64,000 bases of DNA from a plasmid: the sequence record NZ_CP082221.1; one strand, written 5' to 3'. Position numbers and translations under genes: made by a program. This document shows positions 1-63,905 of the stretch, piece by piece. The notes beneath the pieces were generated by a model. That model ran no database searches. It had not been told where the DNA came from and was given only the letters and a program-made list of their open reading frames with translations. The stretch's first letter is position 1, and each line of letters opens with the position of its first letter.

Positions 1-131
1 TAAAACTTCTAAATGAACTTTTAAACAATTATGATATTAGAAATATCGTAATTAGTGAAAAATAATCAAATATGAATGAATCGGATAGGCTGATTCTATT
101 AATATTGAGCTGATAAGCTTAAGGTGAGTTA

Positions 132-830
132 ATGAAATACTTTATAGCAAATTTATATTTTTATACCCGTAAAGAGCTTCTAGCAATTGCTGATGGAAAA
201 GATGAGCTTGTTGATTTTCTAGATAGAATAAAAGGTTCTGAGTTAGAAAGCGCGAAACTTACAAGTGCAGAACGTGCATTTTTGAATGTTTATCAATCTG
301 CTGTGTCAAATACTTTGGAGATGATGAACATTGATGTATCTACATCTAGCTGGATGATTGGCAATGGTTTTTACGTCCCTTCTATGGTTGAAGATTATAA
401 CAAAACAAATATTTCTATTTTAGAAGTAGTACTGTTTTGTAATATCACAGCATTAAAAACATTGATCAAAACTGATACTGCAATAATCGAAACAAGGTTT
501 GTTGAGTTTCTAATTAAGTACGTTGAAAAAATAGAATCGGTACATTGCTCAGATGATAAAATTTTTAAATTAGAACTAGGAAATAAGTATGAGTTTGAGT
601 TACATCAGGAAGGATACATTTTCGTAGAAAGAATTTCAGATGATGAAATTTTTAATGAACAATTTCTAGATTCAGAAATTTTGATAAGTTTGCTGTATGC
701 GAAAGAAAATGAGAATGAGATTATTCCAGTAGGTACTTTTCACAGTGTCTCAGGGGTATATGATGCACTTGATTTTAAAAGTGCTATTAAACCTCTTTTA
801 CCAGATATTGAGTTGCTGGCATCTTTCTAA
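132..830 (+). CDS. hypothetical leading-region protein (paralog of 1419-2177)
   Basis: ORF preceded by conserved hairpin-SD module (gagctgataagcttaaggtg, 7 nt, ATG); rho-independent terminator follows; shares motifs (W-M/I-x-NGF, GNK-x-EF-x-L-x-x-EGY-x-F) with 1419-2177. Confidence 0.6.
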   Translation: MKYFIANLYFYTRKELLAIADGKDELVDFLDRIKGSELESAKLTSAERAFLNVYQSAVSNTLEMMNIDVSTSSWMIGNGFYVPSMVEDYNKTNISILEVVLFCNITALKTLIKTDTAIIETRFVEFLIKYVEKIESVHCSDDKIFKLELGNKYEFELHQEGYIFVERISDDEIFNEQFLDSEILISLLYAKENENEIIPVGTFHSVSGVYDALDFKSAIKPLLPDIELLASF

Positions 831-832
831 AC

Positions 833-861: not shown

Positions 862-968
862 AAATTAAATTTATATTAAAACAAAAATATGTTTTTGATG
901 TATAATAATTAAAGGAAGTTGGATAGGCTAACTTCAAAATTTGAGCTGAAAAGCTTATGGTGATTAAT

Positions 969-1352
969 ATGAAAGACAATAATCTAAAAGATTTATTCCA
1001 GTTCCTCTTAAACCATAAAAAACTCATCCAGTGTGGGATTACAGTTAGTCAGGGCAGCTACTCAATTACCGATCTTAATGAAGGTGTTTGTGTTTTGGTT
1101 GAACGAAATGTTCCATTCAAAGAATATTTATCTTTTCTAGAAATTATGGATAAATGGCCTGAGAAAAATAATGATCAAGGTTATACAGTTAGAATTGAAG
1201 GCGAGGATCCCTCAGAGATATACCTTGACTATTATGAGAATAACAAAAACATGTATGGCAATTGTTCATATGGCAAGAAACGATGGGATCTGATTTTATT
1301 TGTCTATCAAGAACTATTGGAAGCAAAGGAAGTCAGCTATTTAGAGGCTTGA
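969..1352 (+). CDS. hypothetical protein
   Basis: ORF; ATG 969 sits 6 nt after hairpin-SD module gagctgaaaagcttatggtg (track start 957 lies inside the module). Confidence 0.5.
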   Translation: MKDNNLKDLFQFLLNHKKLIQCGITVSQGSYSITDLNEGVCVLVERNVPFKEYLSFLEIMDKWPEKNNDQGYTVRIEGEDPSEIYLDYYENNKNMYGNCSYGKKRWDLILFVYQELLEAKEVSYLEA

Positions 1353-1418
1353 ATAAAGCAAAAGCAAAACCCTTTTTGAAACTTTTTAACATGAGCTGAA
1401 GAGCTTAAGGTGGCATAA

Positions 1419-2177
1419 ATGAACTTACAAGACTTAATTAGCGAAAATGAATTTTTTATCAGGAATCTTAATGTAGCTCAGTATGACAGGCTGGATGAGT
1501 TGACAAATTTAGATGAATATAAATCTGAATTTTTGGACAAAATTAGAAAACTCAATTTTGGCAGTAATGAAAACAGACTTTTGCAAATTTTAGCGCAAGA
1601 CGTTTTTGAGGAAGTTTACGAATACTGTGTATATCAAACCTTTGTAGAATGTTGCATGAATACAAAATGGATGACTGCAAATGGTTTTTTCTTTCCAGTT
1701 AATTTTGATCTAAACGAAAAATATTATGAAGATCCAGAAGCGGGATATGTGATAAATACATTCGATGTGATCATTAGTGCAAATCTCCATGCAATATACC
1801 AAGTAAGACATAATGGAAAGGTATATTTTGATGAACATCAAGAAGAGATTCTACAGTTTTGGGCTGACTACCTTATCGATATTTTACGTCGAAATAAGCG
1901 TCAGGCAGACAAGTTTATTATAGGTAATAAACTAGAATTTGATCTTCAAACTGAAGGGTATGTATTTCCGTTAGATATGGATGAAGATACATTTTATCAA
2001 ACATTTAACGAAGCAGAAATTAACTTCTATATCCTTCAGCAGAGTGGAAAAGACTACAAGATAGAGAAGTTTACTAACACGTACAATAACGGTGGAGCAG
2101 AAGAAAGTAAGATGGCTTTTGAATGTTTCTTAAAGTTCTATCCATACACAGACTTAACTTTAATAGCCAATTTTTAA
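1419..2177 (+). CDS. hypothetical leading-region protein (paralog of 132-830)
   Basis: ORF after gagctgaagagcttaaggtg module; conserved blocks shared with 132-830. Confidence 0.6.
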   Translation: MNLQDLISENEFFIRNLNVAQYDRLDELTNLDEYKSEFLDKIRKLNFGSNENRLLQILAQDVFEEVYEYCVYQTFVECCMNTKWMTANGFFFPVNFDLNEKYYEDPEAGYVINTFDVIISANLHAIYQVRHNGKVYFDEHQEEILQFWADYLIDILRRNKRQADKFIIGNKLEFDLQTEGYVFPLDMDEDTFYQTFNEAEINFYILQQSGKDYKIEKFTNTYNNGGAEESKMAFECFLKFYPYTDLTLIANF

Positions 2178-2653: not shown

Positions 2654-2667
2654 ATGAGGATTTAGAT

Positions 2668-3062: not shown

Positions 3063-3424
3063 TTAAAATTGAATCTAGGGGCAATTAGAGCGATTTAGAG
3101 GGCTATTTGTCGCAACCCTGCGGGATTGCTTTGTTATTACCGGATAAGGTCCAATGGGAGAAGTTTCACTTCTTCGGTCGTCTAGTCAAAATCACAGATT
3201 TTGACTGACTCGCTCGAAGTTTGAAACGGTAATCAAGGAGGGGGATGCTCGCAAATTTCATCAGTTCGCAACGTGGACACGTTGCTCTGCAAATGTATTT
3301 TATAATACGAAAAATTACACTAAATATATGTTTTTTCTTAATAAAAAGACATGAAAATGTAGTATAATTAAGGGGTGAAATCGGATAGGCTGGTTTCTAT
3401 ATATGAGCTGAAAAGCTTAAGGTG
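3063..3424 (+). repeat. structured ~360-bp repeat, copy 1 (candidate ssDNA promoter/ssi or structured leader)
   Basis: near-identical to 59834-60193 and partially to 62240-62442; multiple perfect hairpins (gcaaccctgcgggattgc; agtcaaaatc-acag-gattttgact; gcaacgtg-ga-cacgttgc; long-range ttaccg/cggtaa); ends in tagtataat -10-like box and hairpin-SD module. Confidence 0.7.
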
Positions 3425-3428
3425 TACT

Positions 3429-3743
3429 ATGAAAATTTATACAAAAATTGCCCTTAATTACTTCAGAAATTTAATTTCTGCATGTGGAAAAGAACATGGG
3501 ATATTTTTCTCAGAATCACCACAAAATCCAAAACATTTAGTAGCCAATGACGCTATTTATTTCATTACTCAAATTGATGACTCAATTGTATTTATTGATT
3601 GTAAATATGGTCCAGTTTCAACTTATCGGATAGATGGAATTTTAGATTTTACATCTAATTCTATAGAGGATGCCGCTCAAATTGCTACTAATAATTTTCG
3701 TCTAATCTGTGAAAATCATTACACTATCTTGAATTGTGAATAA
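3429..3743 (+). CDS. hypothetical protein
   Basis: ATG 3429 directly after module gagctgaaaagcttaaggtgtact; track start 3375 lies inside the hairpin module. Confidence 0.5.
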   Translation: MKIYTKIALNYFRNLISACGKEHGIFFSESPQNPKHLVANDAIYFITQIDDSIVFIDCKYGPVSTYRIDGILDFTSNSIEDAAQIATNNFRLICENHYTILNCE

Positions 3744-3778
3744 TAAAAATTTGAGCTGTAAAGCTTATGGAGATCAAA

Positions 3779-4276
3779 ATGAAAAAATGGTTTAGTTCTG
3801 ATGTAAACAACGTTGATGATTTAAAGAATGAATACCGAAAACTTTGCTTTAAACATCATCCAGACATGGGCGGCTCGACTGAAGATATGCAAGCCATAAA
3901 TTCAGAATATGAGCAGCTTTTAAAAGTTCTAATTAATACAAAGGCAGACAGTAACTATTCAGAGAAATCTACTTTTAAAAACCGAGATGAAGAAATTGAT
4001 GCAGAAATTCGTTTGAGAGAAGTTCTAGAAAAGTTAGAAATCTTGGAAGGGTTAGAGATTGAGAGAATAGGACTATGGTTATATGTTTCAGGCAATACAA
4101 AAGCGCATAAGGAAGCATTAAAAGAGGCTGGTTTAAAATGGGCACATGCTAGAAAACTTTGGATATATGTTGGTACAGAATGCAGAGGACGAGGAAACAA
4201 AGATATGGACGAGCTTAGAGCAAAATACGGAAATGAAAAGGTAAAAACTAGAAGCAAAATTAAGAAAATTGCTTAA
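3779..4276 (+). CDS. J-domain (DnaJ-like) protein
   Basis: YRKLCFKHHPDMGG: canonical J-domain helix II-HPD motif; module gagctgtaaagcttatggag upstream; terminator downstream. Confidence 0.6.
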   Translation: MKKWFSSDVNNVDDLKNEYRKLCFKHHPDMGGSTEDMQAINSEYEQLLKVLINTKADSNYSEKSTFKNRDEEIDAEIRLREVLEKLEILEGLEIERIGLWLYVSGNTKAHKEALKEAGLKWAHARKLWIYVGTECRGRGNKDMDELRAKYGNEKVKTRSKIKKIA

Positions 4277-4287
4277 CTATTTTCTAC

Positions 4288-4318
4288 AAAAAAAAGCCGA
4301 CATAATCGGCTTTTTTTT
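4288..4318. terminator. bidirectional rho-independent terminator
   Basis: aaaaaaaagccgacataatcggctttttttt. Confidence 0.7.
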
Positions 4319-4421
4319 ACTTAAAATGTATAATTTCAACAACATAAATGATATAATTTATTTGTGAAATCGGATAGGCTGATTTCGAATTTTTGAGCTG
4401 AAAAGCTTATGGAGTTTTAAG

Positions 4422-4706
4422 ATGTATGCAATAGTTGATTCAAATATGAATGTCATTGATGCTTCGATTTGTAAAATTAAATTAGAATATAAATTGGCTG
4501 ATAAATTGTTTTGGATAGCTCACAATTTTGGTCGTCAAGCTGAAGGAGTTAAGCAAGATGAATTTGAAATAGATGAACTAAGTGATCCAGAAGTATGCAA
4601 TGCTATTCACATGGCTTATCAAAATGCTTTTGACTATAAGAAGAATGAAATTAGTGATAGTTATAAAATCGTAAAATGGGATAGTAAACAGGCAATTTGG
4701 ATTTAA
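4422..4706 (+). CDS. hypothetical protein
   Basis: preceded by tataat box, gaaatcggataggctgatttc hairpin, gagctgaaaagcttatggag module. Confidence 0.5.
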   Translation: MYAIVDSNMNVIDASICKIKLEYKLADKLFWIAHNFGRQAEGVKQDEFEIDELSDPEVCNAIHMAYQNAFDYKKNEISDSYKIVKWDSKQAIWI

Positions 4707-4710
4707 TTTT

Positions 4711-4753
4711 GAAACAAAAAAAAAGCCGTGAATAACGGCTTTTTTTTGTTTCA
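4711..4753. terminator. bidirectional rho-independent terminator
   Basis: gaaacaaaaaaaaagccgtgaataacggctttttttttgtttc extended palindrome. Confidence 0.7.
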
Positions 4754-4851
4754 AAGTGATTGAATAAATTAAGGAAAATGTTATAATTTAATCAAGAAAT
4801 CGGATAGGCTGATTTCTATTTTTTGAGCTGAAAAGCTTATGGAGTTTACAA

Positions 4852-5184
4852 ATGATTAAATCAAATAATATGATCGACATTAAAAATCTTATCAATGAAT
4901 TTCGCAATGAAACTTTATTGGAAAAAGAGAAAGTCTTTATTGATGGTAAAGACAAAAAAAGCGTTATTACTGGTTCTAAAATTTTAACTCTAGCACTTAC
5001 TAAAGAGAATATTATTTATACTATTTATCATATAGAAGTATGCCGTGATGAGGAAGGCAAAACTGTCAAACGTTATAAAATCCATCAAAGAAAATCTTTA
5101 GGTTTTTCAATTCCACTTAGCTTTTTGGTAAAGCGTGAATTTGAAAAAGCTGCACCAGAAACTTTAATAAATGCTTTAATTTGA
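4852..5184 (+). CDS. hypothetical protein
   Basis: same promoter/hairpin/SD module upstream. Confidence 0.5.
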   Translation: MIKSNNMIDIKNLINEFRNETLLEKEKVFIDGKDKKSVITGSKILTLALTKENIIYTIYHIEVCRDEEGKTVKRYKIHQRKSLGFSIPLSFLVKREFEKAAPETLINALI

Positions 5185-5199
5185 TTAGGAGTAGATTCA

Positions 5200-5394
5200 A
5201 TGATTGCTCATCGAATTAATGATTCAACTGAAGAACTAAAACTTGAAGTTTTAAAAAGTGCAGCAGGTTTTTACATTGGAACTTTTGATTATGATTCTGA
5301 TAATTATGGTCCTGTTAGCCGTGTATCGGAATACTTCAAGACCAGTGAGGAAGCAGAATATGCATTAAAGAATAATTGCTGGACACTACGTTAA
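5200..5394 (+). CDS. hypothetical small protein
   Basis: 64 aa, SD aggag upstream, terminator 5393-5427 downstream. Confidence 0.4.
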   Translation: MIAHRINDSTEELKLEVLKSAAGFYIGTFDYDSDNYGPVSRVSEYFKTSEEAEYALKNNCWTLR

Positions 5395-5427
5395 AAAAAA
5401 GCTGGCTTTAAGCCAGCTTTTTTTTAT
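5393..5427. terminator. bidirectional rho-independent terminator
   Basis: aaaaaaaagctggctttaagccagctttttttt. Confidence 0.7.
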
Positions 5428-5753: not shown

Positions 5754-5759
5754 ATTTAC

Positions 5760-6250: not shown

Positions 6251-6330
6251 TGAAATTTAAAAAAATGCATCAAAGTGCTACAATTTTTTCATCTTTTGTT
6301 TATCCACAGCTCTTGAGGAGTGTCAAACTC

Positions 6331-13812: not shown

Positions 13813-13967
13813 TTTGTATTAAGGATAAGTCCAGTGAAAATAAATGCTTGACCAATACCAATATGTCGTCCTTTTCTTATGATAAGGATTCCAAGAATTA
13901 TAATCGCATTGGCGGCAATACATAAAACAGTTGTAAGTTCATTAAATCTAAGATGCATATAATTCAC
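13785..13967 (-). CDS. small membrane protein
   Basis: 60 aa, 2 TM; hairpin-SD module (revcomp gagctgaagagcttaagg) upstream on minus strand. Confidence 0.4.
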   Translation of the reverse strand: MNYMHLRFNELTTVLCIAANAIIILGILIIRKGRHIGIGQAFIFTGLILNTNCFVFALKP

Positions 13968-13995
13968 CTTAAGCTCTTCAGCTCGTATGTTGAAA

Positions 13996-14288: not shown

Positions 14289-14750
14289 TTATTTACAAGA
14301 GTTTTTAATGGCAAATGATTTAATTACTTCTGATCTTTCGTTGTATTTTTTTGCGAGTGATCCATATTCTGATAGTGTATAACTTCCTTTTACAAATACA
14401 GAATTCAGGATTGGATCATTTACAGTTCTAACTGTTGGTAAAGCAATATCTAAAGCCTGTTGATATGGTTTCATAGCATTATTCAAATGATATGGAAATG
14501 ATAAAAAGCCTATAGTAGTTCCTATAAAAAGAGATAAGGCAATTATATTAATATTTAAGTTTACAAATTTAAAAGTTAGCAATTTTAGTGCTATCAAACT
14601 AATGACTATCGACAATATCATATAACTAGCACAATTCATTGCTACATTAATAGATGTTGGATTCAAAAATGAAGTGTCTGTATTAGGAAGCGTAATAAGA
14701 CAATTGTTAATTAAGTCTAGTGGTTGCAATAATTCCATGTTTAACTCCAT
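14289..14750 (-). CDS. membrane protein, hypothetical
   Basis: 153 aa, TM segments; module revcomp gagctgaaaagcttatggag upstream. Confidence 0.45.
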   Translation of the reverse strand: MELNMELLQPLDLINNCLITLPNTDTSFLNPTSINVAMNCASYMILSIVISLIALKLLTFKFVNLNINIIALSLFIGTTIGFLSFPYHLNNAMKPYQQALDIALPTVRTVNDPILNSVFVKGSYTLSEYGSLAKKYNERSEVIKSFAIKNSCK

Positions 14751-14963
14751 AAGCTTTTCAGCTCTAAAATTTTGGTATTGGTTAATTAATTTGTAATATT
14801 GAAGGCGGAAAATTGGATTGAATTAACATAAATGATAATGCTAACACCGCTGCAAGACATGGTGTCACATGATTATTAAATCTATGGATAAATAATATAT
14901 GCCAGCCCATTAAAATTGAAATTCCTGTTAAATAGAATAATGGACCAATTTATTAACCCTCTC

Positions 14964-15161
14964 TTACTGATTAAATTTAATTGAAAAACCAATGCCATTT
15001 ATACTCAGAAATAGACCGATAATTAAAGTCATATGGCCTACATTTTGAACCCATAAATCATTTTGATACTTTTTAGATTTGTACCAATACAAACCTACCA
15101 AAATAAATAGTACACCTAATGCTGTAATAATTAGCGTAATTAAACTAAATTTAAACCCCAT
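14964..15161 (-). CDS. small membrane protein
   Basis: 65 aa, 2 TM; module variant gagctcaatagcttaagg upstream. Confidence 0.4.
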   Translation of the reverse strand: MGFKFSLITLIITALGVLFILVGLYWYKSKKYQNDLWVQNVGHMTLIIGLFLSINGIGFSIKFNQ

Positions 15162-15303
15162 AGTATATCTCCTTAAGCTATTGAGCTCATTCTTTAAAAA
15201 TCTAGGTTAAGTATCTACAAAATTCAAGAAAAAGTAAATGTAATAATACCGAATTGTATTATTTATTTGATTCAATAACATCTCTTGAACCATTTTTAAT
15301 CTG

Positions 15304-15963
15304 TTACTCCTTTTTATCATTAGTGATATTGTTAGCTTCACCGATACGTTCTCTTGCTTCTAAGATCTTTGATTCCTGTATCGTCTCAAATTCCATATCT
15401 TTGAATCTTTTATAAAAATGTTCTATGAATAAAAATTCATAGTCAAAATAGGATATATACCCTCTTTCTTTCATGATCTTTTCGATTGGTTTTTTTAAAG
15501 GGAGATTATAATTATCTTTCAGATACAATACCTTTTTATACATATCTTCATTGATTTCCTTTTCAATGAGAGCTGAACATCGCTCATAATCTGAAAGTAA
15601 TACTAAGTTAATATACATTGGTCTAGATAATTTAAATTCTTTTTCTTTTGAAGAATAAAAAACTTTTCTTAAAATTATTTCTGTTATTTTTTTATTTAAA
15701 TAGTAATTAATAATGATCGATACAAGTCCGCTAATTGCTATCATAAATGCAGTATCAACATTATTAGATTTTTCATGACTAACTAAACCAACTAACCATA
15801 GGGAACCACCGATTAAAGCAATTATGGATAAAAATATGGCTATAATTGAGAAAGTATCCCATTTTTTCATGAGTCCTAGTTTGGATTTCTTAAGCAGATC
15901 GTCTTTTTGATAAACATCGAATATATCGATTACATCATGCATGTAGATATTTTCATGGATCAT
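15304..15963 (-). CDS. membrane-anchored hypothetical protein
   Basis: 219 aa; 2 TM then soluble domain; module gagctgaaaagcttatggag upstream. Confidence 0.45.
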   Translation of the reverse strand: MIHENIYMHDVIDIFDVYQKDDLLKKSKLGLMKKWDTFSIIAIFLSIIALIGGSLWLVGLVSHEKSNNVDTAFMIAISGLVSIIINYYLNKKITEIILRKVFYSSKEKEFKLSRPMYINLVLLSDYERCSALIEKEINEDMYKKVLYLKDNYNLPLKKPIEKIMKERGYISYFDYEFLFIEHFYKRFKDMEFETIQESKILEARERIGEANNITNDKKE

Positions 15964-16219
15964 TTTTTGTACTCCATAAGCTTTTCAGCTCATTCATAAA
16001 GTTTTATGATGTTATATTGAATCAATATAATTTAATATGTATATTTGGTCAATATAACTCAGCAAGGTTGGCTAGGCCATTTTAGATGCTTAAAATTCTA
16101 TTTTAACCATATATAATTCTGAGGTCTTTTTAACTATACCCAAAAAAGCCATATTGATAGTAAATATGGCAATTATAGTTACCCATGATATTTGTTTATA
16201 AATGTAGGAGTCTGATCTG

Positions 16220-22857: not shown

Positions 22858-22899
22858 AGATAGCTAAAGATAGTGAGCCTCACGGCTTCAGGAGAGTCA

Positions 22900-23160
22900 A
22901 TGAAATATTTAATTATTTGTCCATTCATTCTTTTACTTTCAGGATGCAGTGCTCTAGCAACGAGCCCTTATCAAGAAAAGTGTTTAACAGTCAATAACTC
23001 AAAAAATGTTAATCAAGTAATTTCTAAGCTTGAGGTACATCTTCGTCCACCTGTTAAGACAACTAAGAAGCCGAATGAAGAAACTAAATTCAATGAATCA
23101 ATTTTGGCTTTCCAAAATGAAAAAGCCGTTGATTCACATACAGCATTGGAGAATTTATAA
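22900..23160 (+). CDS. small lipoprotein, hypothetical
   Basis: lipobox LLSGCSA; module gagcctcacggcttcaggag upstream. Confidence 0.45.
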   Translation: MKYLIICPFILLLSGCSALATSPYQEKCLTVNNSKNVNQVISKLEVHLRPPVKTTKKPNEETKFNESILAFQNEKAVDSHTALENL

Positions 23161-26933: not shown

Positions 26934-26980
26934 TTAGACAGATTTTTTGATTAAGGAGCCTGACGGCTTAGGGTGTATTC

Positions 26981-27481
26981 ATGAATAATGAAGTTAAAAG
27001 GTTTAAGGTTGTAAACGTCTTACTAGTGACATTTGTTTTGATGTTGATTGTCAGTGTAGGGCTAATGTTATGCCAAAAATGGTTTATCTATACGGTCAAT
27101 CACACAACAAGCTTGAGTGGGAAAGTATATGTAATTAAAAAAGGTGAGCCTGTACAAAAGGGTGATTTAGTTGGTTTTTTATGGCAAGGCCAGATCAAAT
27201 ATCCTAAAGACGTTATTTTTGTAAAAATTGTATCAGGTGTTGAAGGTGATCGTATCGTTGTTAAAGATCGAGACGTCTTTATAAATGATAAATACATTGG
27301 TAGAGCAAAAAAACAAAGTGCAGATGGAAAGCTTCAGCTCGAAGTTATCTCATCACAAGTAATTCCTAAAAATGAAATATTTGTAAGCACTCCTCATAAA
27401 GACTCGCTTGATAGTCGTTACGCAAAGGTCGGAACAATTAACAAGCAATATATTTTGGGGAAAGCTTATGAAATTTTCTAA
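26981..27481 (+). CDS. S26 signal-peptidase-like protein (IncP TraF-like pilin peptidase?)
   Basis: TM anchor plus beta-rich domain with peptidase S26-like architecture; module gagcctgacggcttagggtg upstream. Confidence 0.45.
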   Translation: MNNEVKRFKVVNVLLVTFVLMLIVSVGLMLCQKWFIYTVNHTTSLSGKVYVIKKGEPVQKGDLVGFLWQGQIKYPKDVIFVKIVSGVEGDRIVVKDRDVFINDKYIGRAKKQSADGKLQLEVISSQVIPKNEIFVSTPHKDSLDSRYAKVGTINKQYILGKAYEIF

Positions 27482-32727: not shown

Positions 32728-32761
32728 ACTTAATTAGAGCCGAAGGGCTTATGGTGTCTCT

Positions 32762-33091
32762 ATGAAAGCAAAATTAATAGTAATTTCCTTATCTTTGATT
32801 TGTTCTGGCCCTATGTTCGCTGGCTCAAACTCAATGCAAGATGTTTTTTTGAAGATTAATAGTGAAAGAGAAACAGCTCATTCACTTCAGAAAAATAGAT
32901 TAATCAAAGTTGAATCTGGCCGTTTTTGTAATGAACATAAAGAATTAACATCTAGTAAAACTAAGATTGCGGATCCGCAACATTTACATTCTAGTTCATT
33001 AAACGAAAGGAGCAGAAAACTTAAAAAACCAGAATTAAGTGGTACTAAAACCTCTGATGAGAATTGCGATAAACCAATTCAAGTATCTTAA
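32762..33091 (+). CDS. small secreted protein, hypothetical
   Basis: signal peptide; palindrome encodes ADPQ; module gagccgaagggcttatggtg upstream. Confidence 0.4.
   Translation: MKAKLIVISLSLICSGPMFAGSNSMQDVFLKINSERETAHSLQKNRLIKVESGRFCNEHKELTSSKTKIADPQHLHSSSLNERSRKLKKPELSGTKTSDENCDKPIQVS
32967..32982. repeat. palindrome family member
   Basis: attgcggatccgcaac inside ORF 32762-33091. Confidence 0.8.
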
Positions 33092-33124
33092 TAATAAAGG
33101 AGCCTCACGGCTTAAGGTGATGTT

Positions 33125-34552
33125 ATGAAAATTAAAGCATTAATTATAGGTGTTCTATTTGGTATTACGGTTTCTGCAAATGCCGATCCAGCCTCAATGC
33201 AAGAAGTTTTTGACCAAATAAATGCGCGTGGAAATGTTACTCAGCCAACCGCAATCCAGGGCCAGACTATGAATTATATGACAGGTGGGAGTTTGTTTAT
33301 GCGAACTCCCAACACCACATATAATCTAGCTGCTATTACCCCTCCTTCAGCTAATGCTGGTTGTGGCGGCATTGACTTGTATATGGGTGGCTTCAGCTTT
33401 GTAAATAAAGAACAATTTGTAGCCATGCTAAAAAATATCGGCTCAAATGCATTGGGATATGGCTTTAAATTAGCTTTACAAAATTTATGTCCGACTTGCG
33501 ATAACGTTCTGCAAGCTCTTCAATCTGCCTCTCAACAAATTAATAGAATGAACATTGATTCGTGTGAGGCAGCGAAAGGGATTGTTAATGCAGCAACTTC
33601 TACTGTTGCATTGCGTGGACGCGAACAATCTTCAATGAATTTTGGAACAATAAAAAATATCTTCAGTGATATGACAGAAGCATGGACCAAGAATAAGGGA
33701 AATTCACAACAAACAAATCAAACTTTAGATAATTTATCTAATCAAGATCCAAATATGAAAAATCATATACCGGATGGTAACTTGACTTGGAAAGCATTAT
33801 CAAAAATTTCAGCATTACCTACAGACCAAAAATACTTAATCATGGCAATGGTGGGTACAGTAGTTATAACTGAAGATCCAACCAATGGAACGCCTAAAAT
33901 AGTCGCTTATCCGCGAAGAATCGATAATATTTCTACACTCATTGGTACTAGTGCAAGTTCACAAGCACAATTTCCAGTTTGGCGTTGTGTCGATGGTACA
34001 CGTGAAGATGAATGTACATCTCTTGTTCAAGACAACTTAACAACTAATGAAACATTCTATTCGCTAGTAGATGAAAAGATGAGATTACTAGCGGATGCTA
34101 TTTCGCAACGTCGCCCAATTACTGATGCTGGTGGAATCATTCAATTCATCAATTTAACAGATATTCCGATCTATAAAATCATAGCACTGAATACTCGATA
34201 TGGTGGTGATAGTACTGCTGCAATGATGGCCTTAGACCAGTACAAAGAACTGATAGCAGCAAAATATGCTCTTGCGTACTTTGAAATAACTTCAAAGATG
34301 GTTGAAGCTGCTTTAGGCAATATTATTGCTGGAACGGCTGATGCTGTAACTGCTCAAGAAGTTACTAAGATTAGAGAAACCTTAGATAAAACAAGAGCAG
34401 ACTTGAACCAAAGCACGCAAGTTGCTTACGCACGTTCCAATGTCTCATTTAATATCGCCCAGGAAGTTCAGCATATGGAGCGAACTTTACATTCAAATTT
34501 AGCTCCAGCTTTAAGACAGTCAATTGTCTTCGCTAACACATTAGATAAATAA
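33125..34552 (+). CDS. traH: TraH
   Basis: 475 aa, signal peptide, synteny. Confidence 0.8.
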   Translation: MKIKALIIGVLFGITVSANADPASMQEVFDQINARGNVTQPTAIQGQTMNYMTGGSLFMRTPNTTYNLAAITPPSANAGCGGIDLYMGGFSFVNKEQFVAMLKNIGSNALGYGFKLALQNLCPTCDNVLQALQSASQQINRMNIDSCEAAKGIVNAATSTVALRGREQSSMNFGTIKNIFSDMTEAWTKNKGNSQQTNQTLDNLSNQDPNMKNHIPDGNLTWKALSKISALPTDQKYLIMAMVGTVVITEDPTNGTPKIVAYPRRIDNISTLIGTSASSQAQFPVWRCVDGTREDECTSLVQDNLTTNETFYSLVDEKMRLLADAISQRRPITDAGGIIQFINLTDIPIYKIIALNTRYGGDSTAAMMALDQYKELIAAKYALAYFEITSKMVEAALGNIIAGTADAVTAQEVTKIRETLDKTRADLNQSTQVAYARSNVSFNIAQEVQHMERTLHSNLAPALRQSIVFANTLDK

Positions 34553-43194: not shown

Positions 43195-43860
43195 TTATTG
43201 TTTGAAGTCATATTTAATTTGTAAAAAATCATCGAACGTTATACGGATATTATTCCAATATTCATTAATTTCTTGGTTTTCAATGTTTTCCAGAAAATAC
43301 TCAACTCGATCAAGAAATACTTCAGTATCTTTCTGTATTGTTTTGAAAATAGTAATAACTCGAATAGTATCAGACTTATACTTCATCAATTCAAAGTAGC
43401 AATGTATTAAATCGCTTATAAATCTGTCATTTAGAGATTTTAACTGAATTATGGAGCTATTTTTTTGCGCTTTAAGGTTATGTTCTGATATCAATGATTT
43501 GATTTTAGATAAATCTTTCAATTGATTCGGATCTATGGATTTAAGAAAGTCTGTTATTGCATTAATTGGCCGCTTCCAAAAATAAAAATTCTTTCTTTGT
43601 CTTGCAGCGATCACAAAAAGTTCTTTTATGGTTGACGGAATATTATCATTTGAAAGTAATTCCATTGCGCCCGGGATAAATCTTAATGCACTGGGCTTCC
43701 GTAATTCTTCAAAATAAAGTCTTTGGTAAGTGTCATCAATTTGATAAAAGAACTCATTCTTTATTGGTCCTTCAATATAGGACAATAATGTATAAGAAGA
43801 GGTAGCATTTAGATGAACAACTTCACGGATATAACTTTCAACTCTATCTGAGATTTGCAT
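43195..43860 (-). CDS. hypothetical protein
   Basis: 221 aa; module gagcctcacggcttcaggag upstream on minus strand. Confidence 0.45.
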   Translation of the reverse strand: MQISDRVESYIREVVHLNATSSYTLLSYIEGPIKNEFFYQIDDTYQRLYFEELRKPSALRFIPGAMELLSNDNIPSTIKELFVIAARQRKNFYFWKRPINAITDFLKSIDPNQLKDLSKIKSLISEHNLKAQKNSSIIQLKSLNDRFISDLIHCYFELMKYKSDTIRVITIFKTIQKDTEVFLDRVEYFLENIENQEINEYWNNIRITFDDFLQIKYDFKQ

Positions 43861-43901
43861 TATTGACTCCTGAAGCCGTGAGGCTCAAAAATGTGTTTTG
43901 G

Positions 43902-49722: not shown

Positions 49723-49848
49723 TATTTTTTTTGTTTAAATATACAGAACCGTCTGTTAGTATAGCTAAATAATAAACAGTTTGTTTTAAGTATGTTTTAG
49801 TAGTATAATCTACGCAATTAATGAGCAGAAATGCTTAAGGAGTTCAAG

Positions 49849-50223
49849 ATGGTAGAAACCATTCAATTTCTAGCTTTCCCAGATAATATCCTAAATTTTA
49901 AAAGTCACTTAGACTTTGAAACCCTCATTCTTAATTTGCCTGAAAAAATAGTTCAGGACTTAGATCAGAGTATTGCGAAGCTGAAAAGCTTGGAATCCTG
50001 TTTCTTCACTACATATCGTATACCTGAAATCAATTTACATAACTTCATTCATTTACGCCTTCTTAACTTCAAAGGTCCTATTGATTTAGAAGATGTCAAA
50101 ATTTTAGTTAATTCAAAGGGAGTATATGCAGAAATAATTGCTAGTGTAGAAGGTAAGTTTAATTACTGGTTCGTTGAGTTAAAGCTATTTAACACAGAGG
50201 TGGACCATGAAAATGACTGTTAA
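49849..50223 (+). CDS. hypothetical protein
   Basis: module gagcagaaatgcttaaggag then ATG 49849. Confidence 0.45.
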   Translation: MVETIQFLAFPDNILNFKSHLDFETLILNLPEKIVQDLDQSIAKLKSLESCFFTTYRIPEINLHNFIHLRLLNFKGPIDLEDVKILVNSKGVYAEIIASVEGKFNYWFVELKLFNTEVDHENDC

Positions 50224-58460: not shown

Positions 58461-58544
58461 GCTATTTAATTAGAAAGGTTTTTATTGTTAAGAAGATTTA
58501 GTAAATCTTATCTCAACTGAGCAGAAATGCTTAAGGAGCCAAAA

Positions 58545-59234
58545 ATGGAAGATATGCAAACTATCATAGATAAAATTAGTAAGTGTCTAGCATTATCAAA
58601 AAGTGCCAATGAGCATGAAGCAGCCGTTGCACTTAAGCAAGCACAGACATTGATGCAGAAGTACAAAATAAGTGAAAAACAGATACTAATTAGTGATATT
58701 AAAGAGCGAATTATTCAGACAAAAACTCAAAGAACTAAAGATATTGAAAGACGGCTTAAAGTAATGATCGCAAATGTCTTTGAATGCGGAAGTTACTCAG
58801 GTTTTTACACTTTAGAAGGTGTGAAATATCAACAACATGTTTTTTATGGAGTTGAACCAAATGTGTCTATTGCAACATATGCATATAATGTTTTACTCCC
58901 TATTTTGATTAAAAATAAACAAAGTTATTTAGCCACTTTACATGGAAATACTAAACTTAAATCTAAGAGACGTTTAGGCATAAGCTATCATAGAGGGTGG
59001 ATACTTGGAGTTGAAAAAAAGTGTAGGAACTTAAATCCAGATAAAGAGCTAAAGGAAAAACTGAGCGAATATGAGAAAACTCTTAATCTTATATATTGCG
59101 AAGTTAAAAGTGTTAAACATTATAATAAAGATATGCTTAATCAAGCACGAGTAAAAGGGTATTCGGACGGGAGTAAGGTGAACTTACATCATGCTATTGA
59201 TCCTAATGAAACGAAAAAGATTTTCTTGAGCTGA
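58545..59234 (+). CDS. hypothetical protein
   Basis: module gagcagaaatgcttaaggag upstream. Confidence 0.5.
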   Translation: MEDMQTIIDKISKCLALSKSANEHEAAVALKQAQTLMQKYKISEKQILISDIKERIIQTKTQRTKDIERRLKVMIANVFECGSYSGFYTLEGVKYQQHVFYGVEPNVSIATYAYNVLLPILIKNKQSYLATLHGNTKLKSKRRLGISYHRGWILGVEKKCRNLNPDKELKEKLSEYEKTLNLIYCEVKSVKHYNKDMLNQARVKGYSDGSKVNLHHAIDPNETKKIFLS

Positions 59235-59833: not shown

Positions 59834-60193
59834 AAAATTGAATCTAGGAGCAAATAGAGCGATTTAGAGGGCTATTTGTCGCAACCCTGCGGGATTGCTT
59901 TGTTATTACCGGATAAGGTCCAATGGGAGAAGTTTCACTTCTTCGGTCGTCTAGTCAAAATCACAGATTTTGACTGACTCGCTCGAAGTTTGAAACGGTA
60001 ATCAAGGAGGGGGATGCTCGCAAATTTCATCAGTTCGCAACGTGGACACGTTGCTCTGCAAATGTATTTTATAATACGAAAAATTACACTAAATATATGT
60101 TTTTTCTTAATAAAAAGACATGAAAATGTAGTATAATTGAGGGGTGAAATCGGGTAGGCTGGTTTCTATATATGAGCTGAAAAGCTTAAGGTG
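59834..60193 (+). repeat. structured ~360-bp repeat, copy 2
   Basis: about 97 percent identical to 3063-3424, including the tagtataat box and hairpin-SD module. Confidence 0.75.
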
Positions 60194-60199
60194 AATTGA

Positions 60200-61291
60200 A
60201 TGAAAAATAATGCTTTATATAAAGAGCTTGATAGACATGATGATGTGAATGTTATTCCTAATGTATTAAAAAATGCTATAGGACAGGCACTTGCATCTGA
60301 AGGTAAGTTGTTCTCTGTCTCAGAAATAGATTTAGATATTTATGATTTAATTATCGTCAGTATGAGTGGCGGAAAAGATAGTATTGCTTCTTTGCTCTAT
60401 TTAATAGAGAAAGGCGTGGACATGTCAAAGGTTGAATTGTGGCATAACCTTGTTGACGGTAAGAGTGAGCCGTTTATGGATTGGCTGTTTATGGATAGCT
60501 ACAACAAACAGCTTGCCAAAGCATTTAATTTACCAATTTATAATAGCTGGTTAATGCATGGCTTCGAGGGGGAGATGCTAAAAAATAATTCCATAAGCCA
60601 TGAATATGAGATTGAAACACCGAGTGGGAATATCATTATTCCAAGAAAACGAGCAAAAGCTGGAACGAGATTGCGGTTTCCTCAACAATCAGCAGATCTC
60701 CGTATTAGATGGTGTTCTTCAGCTCTGAAGATCGAGGTAGGGCGTAGAGCTTTATCAAACCAGGAGCGTTTTAATAACTCTAAAGTTTTATTTGTTACTG
60801 GAGAGCGTCGAGAAGAAAGTCCTAATCGAGCAAAATACTTCCAATTAGAAACACATTTTTGTGATAATCGTAATGGGAAAAAAGGTCGTCTAATTGATGC
60901 ATATCGACCAGTTCTTGATTTTACAGAACGTCAAGTGTGGGAAATTTTAGAGCGTCATAATGTCGCAGCGCCAGTACCATATCGCTTAGGATGGTCGAGA
61001 TCAAGCTGTATGACTTGTATCTATAATAGCCCGAAAGTTTGGGCAACCATCAAACATTATTTTCCCAATCGTATTGATCGAATTTTTAAATACGAAGAAC
61101 AATTTGCAACTACAATTAGTCGAAAAAAAATCAATGTCATAAATATAAGTGAGGGTATTCAGCCTTTTAATATCAATGATTTAGTAGCTTTGGATCAGGC
61201 AATGAGAAAAGAATATACCTTGCCTATATTTACAAAAAACTGGGAGCTACCTATGGGGGCCTTTAATAAAGAGGGATGCGGTTCAGATTAA
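60200..61291 (+). CDS. PAPS reductase / PP-loop ATP pyrophosphatase family protein
   Basis: SGGKDS PP-loop, GERREES motif, C-terminal CxxC. Confidence 0.7.
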   Translation: MKNNALYKELDRHDDVNVIPNVLKNAIGQALASEGKLFSVSEIDLDIYDLIIVSMSGGKDSIASLLYLIEKGVDMSKVELWHNLVDGKSEPFMDWLFMDSYNKQLAKAFNLPIYNSWLMHGFEGEMLKNNSISHEYEIETPSGNIIIPRKRAKAGTRLRFPQQSADLRIRWCSSALKIEVGRRALSNQERFNNSKVLFVTGERREESPNRAKYFQLETHFCDNRNGKKGRLIDAYRPVLDFTERQVWEILERHNVAAPVPYRLGWSRSSCMTCIYNSPKVWATIKHYFPNRIDRIFKYEEQFATTISRKKINVINISEGIQPFNINDLVALDQAMRKEYTLPIFTKNWELPMGAFNKEGCGSD

Positions 61292-61348
61292 AAATTATAA
61301 AAGGCTAAAACAATTGAGATTCGAGCAGAAATGCTTAAGGTGAAATTA

Positions 61349-62122
61349 ATGAAATCATATTATCAAATTAGCTTTAGTGGTGGACGTACTTCAGCATATT
61401 TAACCTGGTACTTGCTTAATAACTATAGCCACCTTTATAACTTTATAGTCACATTTGCAAATACAGGCATTGAGCATGAGAAAACTTTAGAGTTTGTCGA
61501 TAAATGTGATAAATATTTTAATTTCAATACAGTTTGGTTAGAAGCAGTTATTCACCCTAAAAAAAGAGTAGGTACGACGCATAAAGTTGTCAATTTTAAG
61601 ACAGCTACCAGGGGGCCAGTACTTTTTGAACAGATGATTGAGAAATACGGAATTCCTAATAAAGTTTATAAGCATTGCACCCGTGAATTAAAAATAAGAC
61701 CAATGGATTCATATATTCGTAGTATTGGGATGAAACCTAAAGATATCCCTACTGCAATCGGTATCCGGGCTGATGAATCTAAACGTTGTGCTAAGGATGC
61801 AGAAGCAAATAACTTTATTTATCCATTAGTCACAGAACATCCAGTGGATAAGCAATTCATATTAGATTGGTGGTCAAAGCAAGCGTTTGATCTAGAGCTA
61901 AATGAATGGGATGGAAATTGTAATATGTGTTTTGAGAAATCATTTCCAAAATTATTGAAGCAGCTTGAATCAAATCCGTTTGCTTTAGAGTTTCATTTAC
62001 GAATGGAAAGGATCCACGGGCAAACTAACAATCAACCAGGCAGGCCTGATAGAGTTTTTTTTCGTCAAAATACTTCAGCAATTGATATCTTAAATATGTT
62101 TAACCAAGCGAATGTAGCTTAG
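61349..62122 (+). CDS. second PAPS reductase-family protein
   Basis: SGGRTS PP-loop, GIRADESKR motif; ATG 61349 follows module gagcagaaatgcttaaggtg. Confidence 0.65.
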   Translation: MKSYYQISFSGGRTSAYLTWYLLNNYSHLYNFIVTFANTGIEHEKTLEFVDKCDKYFNFNTVWLEAVIHPKKRVGTTHKVVNFKTATRGPVLFEQMIEKYGIPNKVYKHCTRELKIRPMDSYIRSIGMKPKDIPTAIGIRADESKRCAKDAEANNFIYPLVTEHPVDKQFILDWWSKQAFDLELNEWDGNCNMCFEKSFPKLLKQLESNPFALEFHLRMERIHGQTNNQPGRPDRVFFRQNTSAIDILNMFNQANVA

Positions 62123-62442: not shown

Positions 62443-62602
62443 TAGTAATGTTTAATTCGAAAATATATTTCATTAAATTAATGTTTTTTAACAATATTAA
62501 CGTTTAAAGATCTTGATTAAAATACATCATTGTATTACAATTTTGGTTAGAAATCGGATAGGCTGATTTCGTATTTTGAGCTGAAAAGCTTATGGTGAAA
62601 AA

Positions 62603-63100
62603 ATGAATAATTATTTTAATGTATTAATCATAACTGATTTAAAAATTGGTCGTTTAAAGACTCCATCACATTGTGCATGTGCTGTTGGCCATATTGATAT
62701 TATGAAGCCATCTTTTGAATACAATACTGGCTTAGTTGCCTTATCTACTACTATGTATGATTGTAAGGACTTTAATGTTTATACATTAAGTACAAAAGAG
62801 TCATTTAATAAGTTTATTTCAACATTAAAAGTTCTTGAAGAATTGATTGGTATTCCTTGTCCTTTCTTAACCGCTATTCAAGAAACATATGAGTTCTATG
62901 GTGACTTCATTTTTGAATGTTTGACCTGGTTTAATAATAACGCAGATATATTATTCAGACCTGACCACTTGGGAGAATTCACTAAAACAGCAGATGAGTC
63001 TCTTAATTTCCAATTAATGTATTTCAAAGTCTTAGAAACTTTTCGTAAAGCCGGTTTAAATGGTTTTATACAATTCAATACATTGAAAACTATTAATTGA
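62603..63100 (+). CDS. hypothetical protein
   Basis: module with gaaatcggataggctgatttc hairpin upstream. Confidence 0.5.
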   Translation: MNNYFNVLIITDLKIGRLKTPSHCACAVGHIDIMKPSFEYNTGLVALSTTMYDCKDFNVYTLSTKESFNKFISTLKVLEELIGIPCPFLTAIQETYEFYGDFIFECLTWFNNNADILFRPDHLGEFTKTADESLNFQLMYFKVLETFRKAGLNGFIQFNTLKTIN

Positions 63101-63128
63101 TTGAGCTGAAGAGCTTGCGGAGAAAAAA

Positions 63129-63905
63129 GTGAATTCAAAAGTTAACATTGGTAAAACTTATAGTGTTTTGAAAAGTGAGTTTATACATACCTTAAAAAGT
63201 ATCGACCAATCTAAAAACATTTATGAAATATTTCATGACTTTGTTTTTTGTTCAGCAGCAGCATTAAGAAACTCAATTGGTCATAGATATCAAAATTTGT
63301 TTAACCACAATATTGAAAATGAATATCTTCAACGTATCAATCGTTACGACGTTAGTGGACGTTTAAAAATAAAAAAATTGTTTTATCTGTTGGTGGATTT
63401 ATGCGAAGCAAAGGGTGAGCCATATGATGTGTTAGGTAGCATTTACATGGAATTAGAAATTGGGAATGATCATATCGGCCAATATTTTACACCAAGTGAG
63501 GTATCAAATTTATGTGCTCAAGTTGTAATGACCGACCTTAAAAAACAACTTGAGGAAGAGGGGGTGATTTCGATTTCCGATCCAGCTTGTGGAGCTGGCT
63601 CAACTTTACTTTCAACTGTAAAACTCTGTTTGGAATCTAAGATACAAGTGCAAGATCACTTGTATATTGAGGCAGCAGACATTGATAGAAACGTTGCTTT
63701 AATGTGTTATATACAACTAAGTTTGTGGGCAGTGCCTTGCCGTATTTTTGTTGGTGATACCCTCAAGTTAAAGTATCGTGAATGCTGGTGTAGCTTAATG
63801 TATTACGTAAAAGGGTGGGACATAAAATTGCATAGTCAAAAATTAAAGGAAATTGTACATAAAGCTGAAGATTATGTGCCTAATTTCATTTTAATTAATG
63901 ATTGA
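63129..63905 (+). CDS. N6-adenine methyltransferase-like protein (HsdM-type N-terminal half, lacks NPPF/Y)
   Basis: GQYFTP and DPACGAGSTLLS (motif I) present; ORF stops at ..VPNFILIND right where the NPPF catalytic motif is expected; GTG start after the hairpin-SD module. Confidence 0.5.
   Translation: MNSKVNIGKTYSVLKSEFIHTLKSIDQSKNIYEIFHDFVFCSAAALRNSIGHRYQNLFNHNIENEYLQRINRYDVSGRLKIKKLFYLLVDLCEAKGEPYDVLGSIYMELEIGNDHIGQYFTPSEVSNLCAQVVMTDLKKQLEEEGVISISDPACGAGSTLLSTVKLCLESKIQVQDHLYIEAADIDRNVALMCYIQLSLWAVPCRIFVGDTLKLKYRECWCSLMYYVKGWDIKLHSQKLKEIVHKAEDYVPNFILIND

Follow-up and report, generated by a model that had tools for sequence, protein, structure and literature searches.

The 64,000-nucleotide (nt) stretch of plasmid DNA analysed here (sequence record NZ_CP082221.1, hereafter the window) carries 22 copies of a short module in which a hairpin adjoins the Shine-Dalgarno (SD) sequence of the following open reading frame (ORF). 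The module is real, strongly non-random, under structural selection and previously undescribed. Its structure is conserved, it is strand-locked to the genes, it lies in leaders and intercistronic spacers, and insertions or deletions (indels) between related plasmids end at it. We propose, with about an even chance of being right, that it is a cis-acting RNA leader which sets translation initiation and mRNA stability and which is at the same time a portable joint between genes. Below, "hairpin 2" denotes the SD-adjoining core hairpin (14 nt), and "hairpin 1" a hairpin (21 nt) found upstream of it in the full cassettes.

Layout and frequency of the module

The layout can be written as (U)GAGC-N-NNNN-N'-GCUU, 2 nt, GG(A/U)G, 4-8 nt and the start codon. 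The core is a 5-bp stem (G.U, A-U, G-C, C-G and N-N') with a 4-nt loop, and the gap between GCUU and GG is exactly 2 nt. All 22 sites listed in the initial annotation were confirmed, and the three Watson-Crick versions of the stem that it described are real (closing pair T-A in 14 copies, C-G in five and A-T in three). Some details have to be revised. The two letters before GG, described as A or T, are so in 18 of the 22 copies and differ in four: the dinucleotide 3' of GCTT is AA ten times, AT eight times, CA twice, and AG and GC once each. The spacer between SD and start codon, given as 5-9 nt, measures 4-8 nt and is most often 6 nt long. Eleven copies have GGTG as their SD core and the other 11 have GGAG; the start codon is ATG in 21 copies and GTG in one.

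The underlying pattern GAGCNNNNNNGCTT (GAGC-N6-GCTT) has 22 matches in the window against 1.06 expected, and no more than 5 were seen in any of 100 dinucleotide-preserving shuffles. A weight-matrix scan over 128 kb (both strands) gave a bimodal distribution, i.e. the 22 copies score 24.8-37.4 bits and everything else 8 bits or less. In other words, the module is a discrete family without a degenerate tail. Every copy is co-oriented with the downstream ORF, on both strands (17 copies on the plus and 5 on the minus strand). The genes concerned are mostly ORFans; the rest encode a J-domain protein, a DUF2786/DUF7168 protein, two PAPS-reductase-domain proteins, an N6-methylase, an S26 peptidase and TraH. 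The minus-strand ORFs at 13-16 kb contain transmembrane-like (TM-like) segments, so that their earlier label of small membrane genes is reasonable.

The position of the module also bears on gene starts. The minus-strand starts 13967 and 14750, which had been assigned to two of the copies, fall inside the SD, and the true starts are the ATG codons at 13958 and 14738. We note that the longest-ORF starts at window positions 957, 3375, 3767, 13967 and 14750 disagree with the start codons placed by the module, as do four starts of the Prokaryotic Genome Annotation Pipeline (PGAP) in the record of a pABTJ1-type plasmid (~37294(-), ~36640, ~32940; record-segment coordinates).

The source plasmid and its relatives

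The window has a G+C content of 33.8% (A+T 66%) and is, over its first 20 kb, 99.9% identical to more than 200 Acinetobacter plasmids. The matching plasmids are typed as MOB-F / MPF-F conjugative and include plasmids of the sizes known from TYTH-1, ACICU and AB5075. The plasmid is a member of the RepAci6 (pACICU2/pAb-G7-2-type) conjugative family. Plasmids of the pACICU2, pAb-G7-2, p1AB5075 and pABTJ1 types (~230 records) are main carriers of blaOXA-23 and aphA6 in epidemic A. baumannii. The pABTJ1-type plasmid used for comparison has a rep cluster that differs from that of the window, and its traH shares 74.6% nucleotide identity with the window gene.

The genes at 58.5-64 kb and 0-5.4 kb are all directed toward the place where oriT presumably lies, upstream of the genes for the coupling protein and MobF, and this direction fits that of leading-region genes. 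Selection for translational efficiency has been reported for the leading regions of MOB-F plasmids (PMC13478746).

Pairing, covariation and orthologous sites

A covariance model, as proposed in the initial annotation, was built from the 22 window copies. It recovers all of them and a further 29 in the pABTJ1-type plasmid, which gives a set of 51 copies. In this set 98.4% of the cells of the five stem pairs are paired. U-A closes the stem in 26 copies, C-G in 18, A-U in 3 and U.G in 3, and this position is never unpaired; the base of the stem is G.U in 44 and A-U in 2, and pair 3 shows one G-C to A-U double change. None of 500 shuffles reached the observed pairing or covariation, and a shift of the partner by 1-3 columns destroyed the signal. 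Since copy-and-paste between loci could mimic covariation, distinct variants were counted: there are 22 different hexamers of closing pair plus loop, with 17 different loops, and the closing position is unpaired in none of them.

The strongest evidence for selected pairing comes from orthologous sites. The module is kept at orthologous genes of the window and the pABTJ1 lineage whose proteins are 41-85% identical, and the closing pair has undergone double substitutions between window copy and orthologue: U-A to C-G at 3753 and 62578, A-U to C-G at 49823 and 61323, and C-G to U-A at 26956. Examples of the orthologous hairpins are GAGCC-GACA-GGCUU (3753), AAGCU-GAAA-AGCUU (26956) and GAGCC-GAAA-GGCUU (62578). 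The within-module differences from a close relative are either loop changes or switches between wobble and Watson-Crick pairs. Moreover, the G.U and U.G wobbles are pairs in the sense strand alone; their counterparts in the opposite strand would be A/C mismatches. The sense-only wobbles, the strand-locking and the intercistronic position taken together point to a selected structure placed in the mRNA. The view that selection on structure and not chance likeness explains the similarity of the copies is thus upheld by the pairing statistics, by the 22 variants that are never unpaired and by the double substitutions.

Several known kinds of RNA element were considered and rejected. A fourU-type thermometer, or a helix that sequesters the SD, is predicted by folding in some copies only, through pairing of U-rich 5' bases with the SD. 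This extension (columns 1-6 / 21-26) is 32-66% paired per column pair in either register, mostly by U.G, and no excess covariation was found in it over the 51 copies, the level being that expected from A/U-rich flanks. The conserved structure is the 5-bp core only. An intrinsic terminator or attenuator does not agree with the fact that hairpin 2 never has a U-run 3' of it and that hairpin 1 has one in 2-3 copies only; the terminator scan flags hairpin 1 at just 3 sites. A lambda-type boxB, or any hairpin read through its loop, is at odds with 17 different 4-nt loops in 51 copies, including UCAC, AUAC, UAGC and GCAU. Finally, a CsrA/RsmA target was dismissed since 11 of the 22 SDs are GGUG and the GG of hairpin 1 is paired in the predicted fold.

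Two architectures

Seven copies (107, 943, 3405, 4395, 4825, 60174 and 62578) belong to a full cassette that consists of a -10 box, 8 nt, hairpin 1, 6-8 nt, hairpin 2 and the SD; the TATAAT-like box and second hairpin mentioned in the initial annotation are confirmed at these copies. In six of these cassettes exactly 8 nt separate the end of the -10 box (TATAAT in five, TACAAT in one) from the stem of hairpin 1, which places the usual transcription start, by prediction, at the base of hairpin 1. Hairpin 1 is predicted to fold into an 8-bp stem with an AUAGG loop. Its stem shows compensated substitutions (GAAAUC/GAUUUC, GAAGUU/AACUUC, GGAAUC/GAUUCC and GAAAUU/AAUUUC), and its 9-nt GGAUAGGCU segment is conserved while the stem covaries.

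The other 15 copies consist of hairpin 2 and the SD only. A -10 box (TATAAT/TACAAT) is seen in 7-8 of the 22 copies, with a TGn extension in two and a poorly conserved -35; the remaining copies have no promoter. Ten copies without promoter lie 2-40 nt past a co-directional stop codon, four of them inside the tra operon. At the copy at 49823 a TATAAT box lies 13 nt upstream, and hairpin 2 itself is ~6 nt from the predicted 5' end. When co-directional gaps of 26-60 nt are considered, 8 of 12 contain a module (9 of 13 if the GTG-start gene at 63129 is included), and none of the 33 gaps too short to hold one carries it. The module is in effect the standard spacer between non-overlapping genes. By promoter spacing and intercistronic position, the hairpins would lie within the transcript.

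Strong terminator-like hairpins with flanking A- and T-runs were also observed at 833-854, 2184-2205 and 4283-4318, i.e. 3' of ORFs 132-830, 1419-2177 and 3779-4276. With these, the leading region looks as if made of terminator-bounded units, each with its own promoter-leader cassette.

Gain and loss of genes at the module

The module marks points at which gene blocks were gained or lost; a signature of how modular genes were recruited is one of the readings offered in the initial annotation. Homology between the window and pABTJ1 stops at 32757, inside the first module between traF and traH, and resumes in traH, so that ORF 32762-33091 together with the second module is an indel between two module copies. 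The unit of ORF 4422-4706 is likewise an indel, and the two cassettes that flank it both map to a single pABTJ1 cassette. A window-specific block at ~60.06-62.26 kb contains one full cassette and the two PAPS-reductase-domain genes (60200-61291 and 61349-62122) and has a copy of a separate 190-nt repeat on either side. The pAb-G7-2-type relative lacks this block (~60060-62260), whereas the pABTJ1 and pAS lineages have orthologues of it; it is variable leading-region cargo.

Distribution of the module

The module is plasmid-wide and tied to gene starts in related replicons as well: by our reading, 25 of the 29 copies in the pABTJ1-type plasmid are at PGAP-annotated starts, and the full pAb-G7-2-type plasmid has 27 copies. 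A 75-nt cassette matched 230 plasmid records, of which 229 are from Acinetobacter and 229 are typed as conjugative. The relatives from A. soli/A. seifertii and from Moraxella gave no copies with the covariance model. When one genome per species was scanned for the exact pattern, there were 21 singletons in unrelated taxa, none of them in Acinetobacter, as compared to ~17 estimated by chance; a general Acinetobacter or bacterial motif was therefore rejected. So was a phage origin, since the cassette has no BLAST match in 50,697 phage records and none in viral contigs. In metagenomes at least 120 loci matched, with no real cassette among the matches listed. By these searches the module is specific to the lineage of the RepAci6/pABTJ1 family of Acinetobacter conjugative plasmids.

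The statement that no equivalent has been described agrees with our searches of Rfam and the searchable literature. Rfam 15 gave 0 matches over the window at the gathering threshold, and a permissive scan of 1-6300 gave sub-threshold noise only, which does not coincide with the modules. No paper was found in which the motif sequence appears, or in which RepAci6 is combined with a stem-loop or p1AB5075 with a transcription start.

The A. soli plasmid pAS566-3, a more distant relative, lacks the motif and has instead ~14 copies of an analogous cassette with a different sequence, composed of TTGAAA, the palindrome TATAACCTAGGTTATA, TATAAT, ~20 nt, AUGCC-GAAA-GGCUU, directly followed by GGAGUC, and the start codon. 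All of these cassettes have a GCC-GAAA/GUAA-GGC hairpin, UUGGAG and a start codon, and most have a -35 TTGAAA, TATAACCTAGGTTATA between -35 and -10, and TATAAT; the copy at 22797 lacks the palindrome and TATAAT. The operator-like TATAACCTAGGTTATA suggests a common repressor of the cassette promoters. In A. soli/A. seifertii this promoter, GNRA-hairpin and SD cassette stands in some cases before orthologues of genes that have the module in the window. The core GC(N)-loop-(N')GCUU before the SD is common to both, and the design therefore predates the sequence.

Proposed function and its alternatives

The simplest model is host machinery acting in cis. When folded, hairpin 2 would hold the nucleotides that directly precede the SD in a structure both small and fixed, and the SD and start codon would stay exposed whatever the upstream sequence, i.e. 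the ribosome-binding site would be insulated. The computed probability that hairpin 2 forms in its native context has a median of 0.97. In-silico disruption of the 5' arm raises the opening energy of the SD-to-start segment from 4.64 to 5.51 kcal/mol (p=2e-4), and the compensatory double change brings it to 4.40. Hairpin 2 may furthermore stack on the SD/anti-SD helix. If the 3' end of the 16S rRNA is CCUCCUUA, as is general among gamma-proteobacteria, UAAGGAG would pair with its last seven bases, up to the 3' terminal A, and hairpin 2 would abut the helix; such stacking would explain the invariant 2-nt junction. Decay that depends on the 5' end may also be hindered, as the hairpin would provide the downstream cistron with a structured 5' edge. 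In the promoter-proximal copies of the leading region, the 8-bp hairpin 1 would be at the very 5' end of the mRNA, the typical position of a 5'-terminal stabiliser. Finally, a self-contained and repeated unit could act as a joint at which gene blocks are inserted, deleted or swapped.

A number of points weigh against this proposal. The gain in accessibility is small (~0.9 kcal/mol) and depends in part on the design of the mutants, the SDs are only modestly stronger than those of genes without the module (-7.6 vs -6.4 kcal/mol), and ~70 other plasmid genes, including most tra genes, do without it. A 5-bp hairpin is also a poor nuclease barrier. RNA-level cis action on translation and stability, the stacking and the insulation are inferred. 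The main weakness of a purely structural model in cis, however, is the near-invariant stem and junction next to a free loop. Four of the five stem pairs and the GCUU-NN-GG junction are almost invariant between lineages whose traH genes diverge by ~25% at the nucleotide level. If any stable hairpin served, drift would be expected, and the lack of it speaks for sequence-specific recognition by something.

Such recognition is the essence of an alternative in which the module is the operator of a post-transcriptional regulon, read at the GAGC/GCUU stem base and the SD, and perhaps at the top of hairpin 1, by a trans-acting factor (a plasmid ORFan protein, a host RNA-binding protein or a small RNA). 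Through such a regulon, the translation of ~27 genes for establishment, membrane and transfer functions would be repressed or activated together, e.g. in a burst after conjugative entry followed by shut-off. We regard it as unlikely. It would account for the four stem pairs, the flanking U...A and the 2-nt SD junction being near-invariant in 51 copies of two lineages while loop and closing pair are free, and for the conserved GGAUAGGCU in a covarying hairpin 1; most plasmid ORFs are without a recognisable domain, so a novel binder could hide there. Yet a Pfam search of 50 plasmid ORFs found no CsrA, FinO/ProQ or Hfq domain, and no RNA-binding or RNase domain except in an SNase homologue and H-NS. 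The 17 loops disagree with the usual loop-based recognition by proteins, half of the SDs are GGUG and not GGA, unlike CsrA targets, and a complementary small RNA would need an additional antisense copy of the motif, of which the plasmid has none. The absence of the motif from species-representative Acinetobacter chromosomes speaks against a host regulon. The more specific version, in which one factor, probably an ORFan protein, switches ~27 genes together after entry into a new cell, seems to us rather improbable; if true, the regulon would do at the post-transcriptional level what global circuits of the KorA/KorB type do for transcription in other plasmids. Less credible still is a processing site, at which a host endonuclease such as RNase E would cut the A/U-rich stretch 5' of hairpin 2 and split the leading-region and tra transcripts into units, each headed by a protective hairpin with a strong ribosome-binding site behind it. 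In nearly all copies the 6 nt before hairpin 2 are A/U-rich, many copies are intercistronic, and at 49823 hairpin 2 is used naturally near a predicted 5' end. But in a plasmid with this A+T content such flanks are background, and no specific cleavage motif is conserved upstream, where the columns vary. Processing also overlaps the stability part of the cis-leader model and does not exclude that model.

The remaining alternatives dispense with an RNA function. The sequence is an inverted repeat (RAGC-N6-GCTT), indels end at the module and these plasmids use other repeated DNA palindromes, all of which would suit a DNA-level element, be it the operator of a dimeric protein, a recombination site or a hairpin of the transferred single strand. 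We consider this very unlikely. The copies are always gene-oriented on both strands at a fixed spacing to SD and start, some lie inside operons without a promoter, and complementarity is kept throughout at those spacer positions to which a dimeric protein would be indifferent. These properties, with the wobbles that turn into A/C mismatches on the other strand, led us to reject a DNA operator or single-stranded DNA element; moreover, as 5 copies are on the strand opposite the other 17, no transferred strand holds all of them hairpin-competent. The module could, lastly, be a functionless ribosome-binding segment that was copied along with genes by duplication or recombination and kept uniform by gene conversion. 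The copies are indeed very alike, those of the pAS-type cassette are almost identical to each other, and indels are bounded by copies. This explanation is already disfavoured, and we give it hardly any credence: the module is kept at orthologous sites where the proteins are only 41-55% identical, loops diverge while pairing is never lost in 22 variants, and the differences from a close relative avoid stem disruption.

Neighbouring repeats and other features of the window

A near-identical repeat of ~190 nt is found at 3100-3290, 59870-60058 and 62240-62443. At 46-48%, its G+C content exceeds the overall 34%. Every window copy precedes a full cassette at a distance of ~70-110 nt, and there are 4 copies in pABTJ1. 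The single-stranded DNA is predicted to fold into an extended, imperfect hairpin (z -3.7 for one strand, -4.6 for the other); a convincing -35/-10 pair was not found in it. The repeat is a candidate for an ssi/Frpo-type single-strand promoter or priming site in the leading region.

The palindrome (GT)TGCGGATCCGCA(AC), 14-16 nt long, occurs 11 times in the window, 7 of them inside unrelated coding regions, and ~18 times in pABTJ1, sometimes 6-8 nt upstream of hairpin 2. Relatives carry TTGCG-N4-CGCAA variants of it (TTTGCGTCGACGCAAA in pMOV1, GTTGCGTTACCGCAAC in pAS566-3). Because so many window sites are in coding regions, the palindrome (GTTGCGGATCCGCAAC) was rejected as a part of the module in spite of adjoining some pABTJ1 copies, and was taken as a separate DNA-level feature. 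The dispersed palindrome is possibly a DNA-binding site for a plasmid ParB/KorB-like protein.

Between 53214 and 57982 there is an inverted pair of insertion sequences, with ends 100% identical to the ISAba1 copies of pABTJ1, which flanks a 273-amino-acid (aa) ORF (54410-55231) of the size of OXA-23. The segment is probably a Tn2006-type blaOXA-23 transposon, with ORF 54410-55231 as candidate blaOXA-23. Two further ORFs have no module: a UmuC-like Y-family polymerase gene with IMS domains at 39350-40642, and a 111-aa ORF at 17357-17692(-) with weak zinc-ribbon matches, which lies just upstream of the tra operon and is divergent from it.

Table 1. Positions of the hairpins, dispersed palindromes and analogous cassettes (window coordinates unless pAS566-3 is named).
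Position	Strand	Feature	Remark
107..134	+	hairpin 2 (GAGCU-GAUA-AGCUU), AAGGUG SD, ATG, ORF 132-830	
943..971	+	hairpin 2, AUGGUG SD, ATG, ORF 969-1352	
1393..1421	+	hairpin 2 (loop GAAG), SD, ATG, ORF 1419-2177	intercistronic, 40 nt past upstream stop
3405..3431	+	hairpin 2, SD, ATG, ORF 3429-3743	kept at pABTJ1 orthologue, 47% aa identity
3753..3781	+	hairpin 2 (GAGCU-GUAA-AGCUU), SD, ATG, J-domain ORF 3779-4276	9 nt past upstream stop
4395..4424	+	hairpin 2, SD, ATG, ORF 4422-4706	index copy of the initial annotation
4825..4854	+	hairpin 2, SD, ATG, ORF 4852-5184	
13956..13984	-	hairpin 2, AAGGUG SD, ATG (start 13958), 57-aa TM-like ORF	
14736..14764	-	hairpin 2, AUGGAG SD, ATG (start 14738), 149-aa TM-like ORF	
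15159..15188	-	hairpin 2 (loop CAAU), SD, ATG, 65-aa TM-like ORF	
15961..15991	-	hairpin 2, SD, ATG, 219-aa ORF	
22875..22902	+	hairpin 2 (GAGCC-UCAC-GGCUU), CAGGAG SD, ATG, 86-aa tra-operon ORF	17 nt past upstream stop
26956..26983	+	hairpin 2 (GAGCC-UGAC-GGCUU), SD, ATG, S26 signal peptidase	
32737..32764	+	hairpin 2 (GAGCC-GAAG-GGCUU), SD, ATG, ORF 32762-33091	pABTJ1 homology ends inside module
33100..33127	+	hairpin 2, SD, ATG, traH	8 nt past upstream stop
43858..43886	-	hairpin 2 (GAGCC-UCAC-GGCUU), SD, ATG, 221-aa ORF	
49804..49851	+	TATAAT (49804-49809), 13 nt, hairpin 2 (GAGCA-GAAA-UGCUU), SD, ATG, ORF 49849-50223	
58519..58547	+	hairpin 2 (A-U closing pair), SD, ATG, DUF2786/DUF7168 ORF	
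60174..60202	+	hairpin 2, SD, ATG, PAPS-reductase-domain ORF 60200-61291	
61323..61351	+	hairpin 2 (A-U closing pair), SD, ATG, second PAPS-reductase-domain ORF (61349-62122)	
62578..62605	+	hairpin 2, SD, ATG, ORF 62603-63100	
63103..63131	+	hairpin 2, GCGGAG SD, GTG, N6-methylase ORF	2 nt past upstream stop
78..96	+	hairpin 1 (GAAUC-GGAUAGGCU-GAUUC), cassette at 107	without clear -10 box
901..935	+	TATAAT (901-906), 8 nt, hairpin 1 (915-935)	compensated stem GAAGUU/AACUUC
3363..3397	+	TATAAT (3363-3368), 8 nt, hairpin 1 (3377-3397)	G.U variant
4352..4386	+	TGnTATAAT extended -10 (TATAAT 4352-4357), 8 nt, hairpin 1 (4366-4386)	
4782..4816	+	TGnTATAAT extended -10 (TATAAT 4782-4787), 8 nt, hairpin 1 (4796-4816)	best promoter-scan match
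60132..60166	+	TATAAT, 8 nt, hairpin 1	loop variant GGGUAGGCU
62536..62570	+	TACAAT, 8 nt, hairpin 1	
2639, 9915, 16866, 18596, 23652, 32968		TGCGGATCCGCA palindrome	first bases
39215, 46670, 49706, 52125, 63949		TGCGGATCCGCA palindrome	first bases
4221, 4851, 6806, 8320, 9193, 9965, 12560	-	analogous cassettes	pAS566-3, examples
13913, 15417, 16697, 17187, 22797, 32836	-	analogous cassettes	pAS566-3, examples

Comparison with known systems

The promoter-early stem-loops (PeSL) of T4-type phages are mobile regulatory cassettes (Arbiol et al. 2010, PMC2839356; Comeau et al. 2014, PMC4122927). Like the module and its full cassettes, with their putative promoters, a PeSL is a short repeated intergenic unit that joins a sigma-70-type promoter, a stem-loop, an SD and the start of the next gene, it is present in dozens of copies per genome, mostly before small ORFan genes in plastic regions, and insertions, deletions and replacements between relatives end in it, as is seen here for ORFs 4422-4706 and 32762-33091 with respect to pABTJ1. 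However, the stem-loop of a PeSL, situated in or around the promoter, is a terminator or attenuator with a G/C tract, whereas both hairpins of the present cassette are downstream of the -10, have no conserved U-run and abut the SD, and about two thirds of the module copies are intercistronic and without promoter. The host element is a plasmid and not a phage, and there is no sequence similarity.

The ompA-type stabiliser in the 5' untranslated region, studied in the Belasco laboratory, reportedly combines a 5'-terminal stem-loop with a second hairpin beside the ribosome-binding site. The full cassettes are similar in having a hairpin at the predicted first transcribed bases, a short single-stranded spacer and a second hairpin 5' of the SD. 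The ompA leader is a single chromosomal one of ~130 nt, whereas here there is a 55-nt unit in seven copies plus 15 half-units; the placement of hairpin 1 near the 5' end follows from the -10 spacing alone, and stabilisation is putative.

REP and BIME elements are short palindromic hairpins that recur between the cistrons of operons and can influence how stable the mRNA is and how it is translated. The module shares this appearance and location. REP/BIME elements, however, occur chromosome-wide and in both orientations; they are usually associated with the 3' end of the gene before them and have no SD attached. The module, by contrast, is confined to plasmids, strand-locked and set at a constant distance from the SD that follows it.

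The same genetic setting, i.e. a MOB-F leading region with genes toward oriT, many of them ORFans or anti-restriction-type genes, and a pressure for fast expression after entry, is found in studies of Frpo/ssp single-strand promoters (Samuel et al. 2024, PMC11541004) and of leading-region translational adaptation (Shaw et al. 2026, PMC13478746). Frpo-type promoters are DNA hairpins of 150-330 nt with -35 and -10 boxes, in contrast to the 14-nt RNA-sense hairpin at the SD; the GC-rich 190-nt hairpin repeat upstream of three cassettes may be their counterpart. The two studies deal with codon adaptation and describe no repeated ribosome-binding-site structure, and Acinetobacter lies outside their coverage. 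In kind, the module groups with repeated regulatory leader cassettes and with SD-proximal or 5'-terminal mRNA hairpins, and a function like theirs would be putative.

Biological significance

A single conserved RNA structure before 22-29 genes offers a handle on fast, context-independent plasmid expression, and many of these genes are leading-region genes, which are expressed first in the new host. In that region the module would be a ribosome-binding-site-level counterpart to the tuning of translational efficiency. It is also a practical marker of true start codons that could correct annotation in this plasmid family, and it marks the joints at which accessory genes are swapped. The analogous A. 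soli/A. seifertii cassette suggests that standardised leader parts recur in the plasmid superfamily. For the plasmids that carry it, the module is a possible single point of intervention, by antisense or RNA-binding agents.

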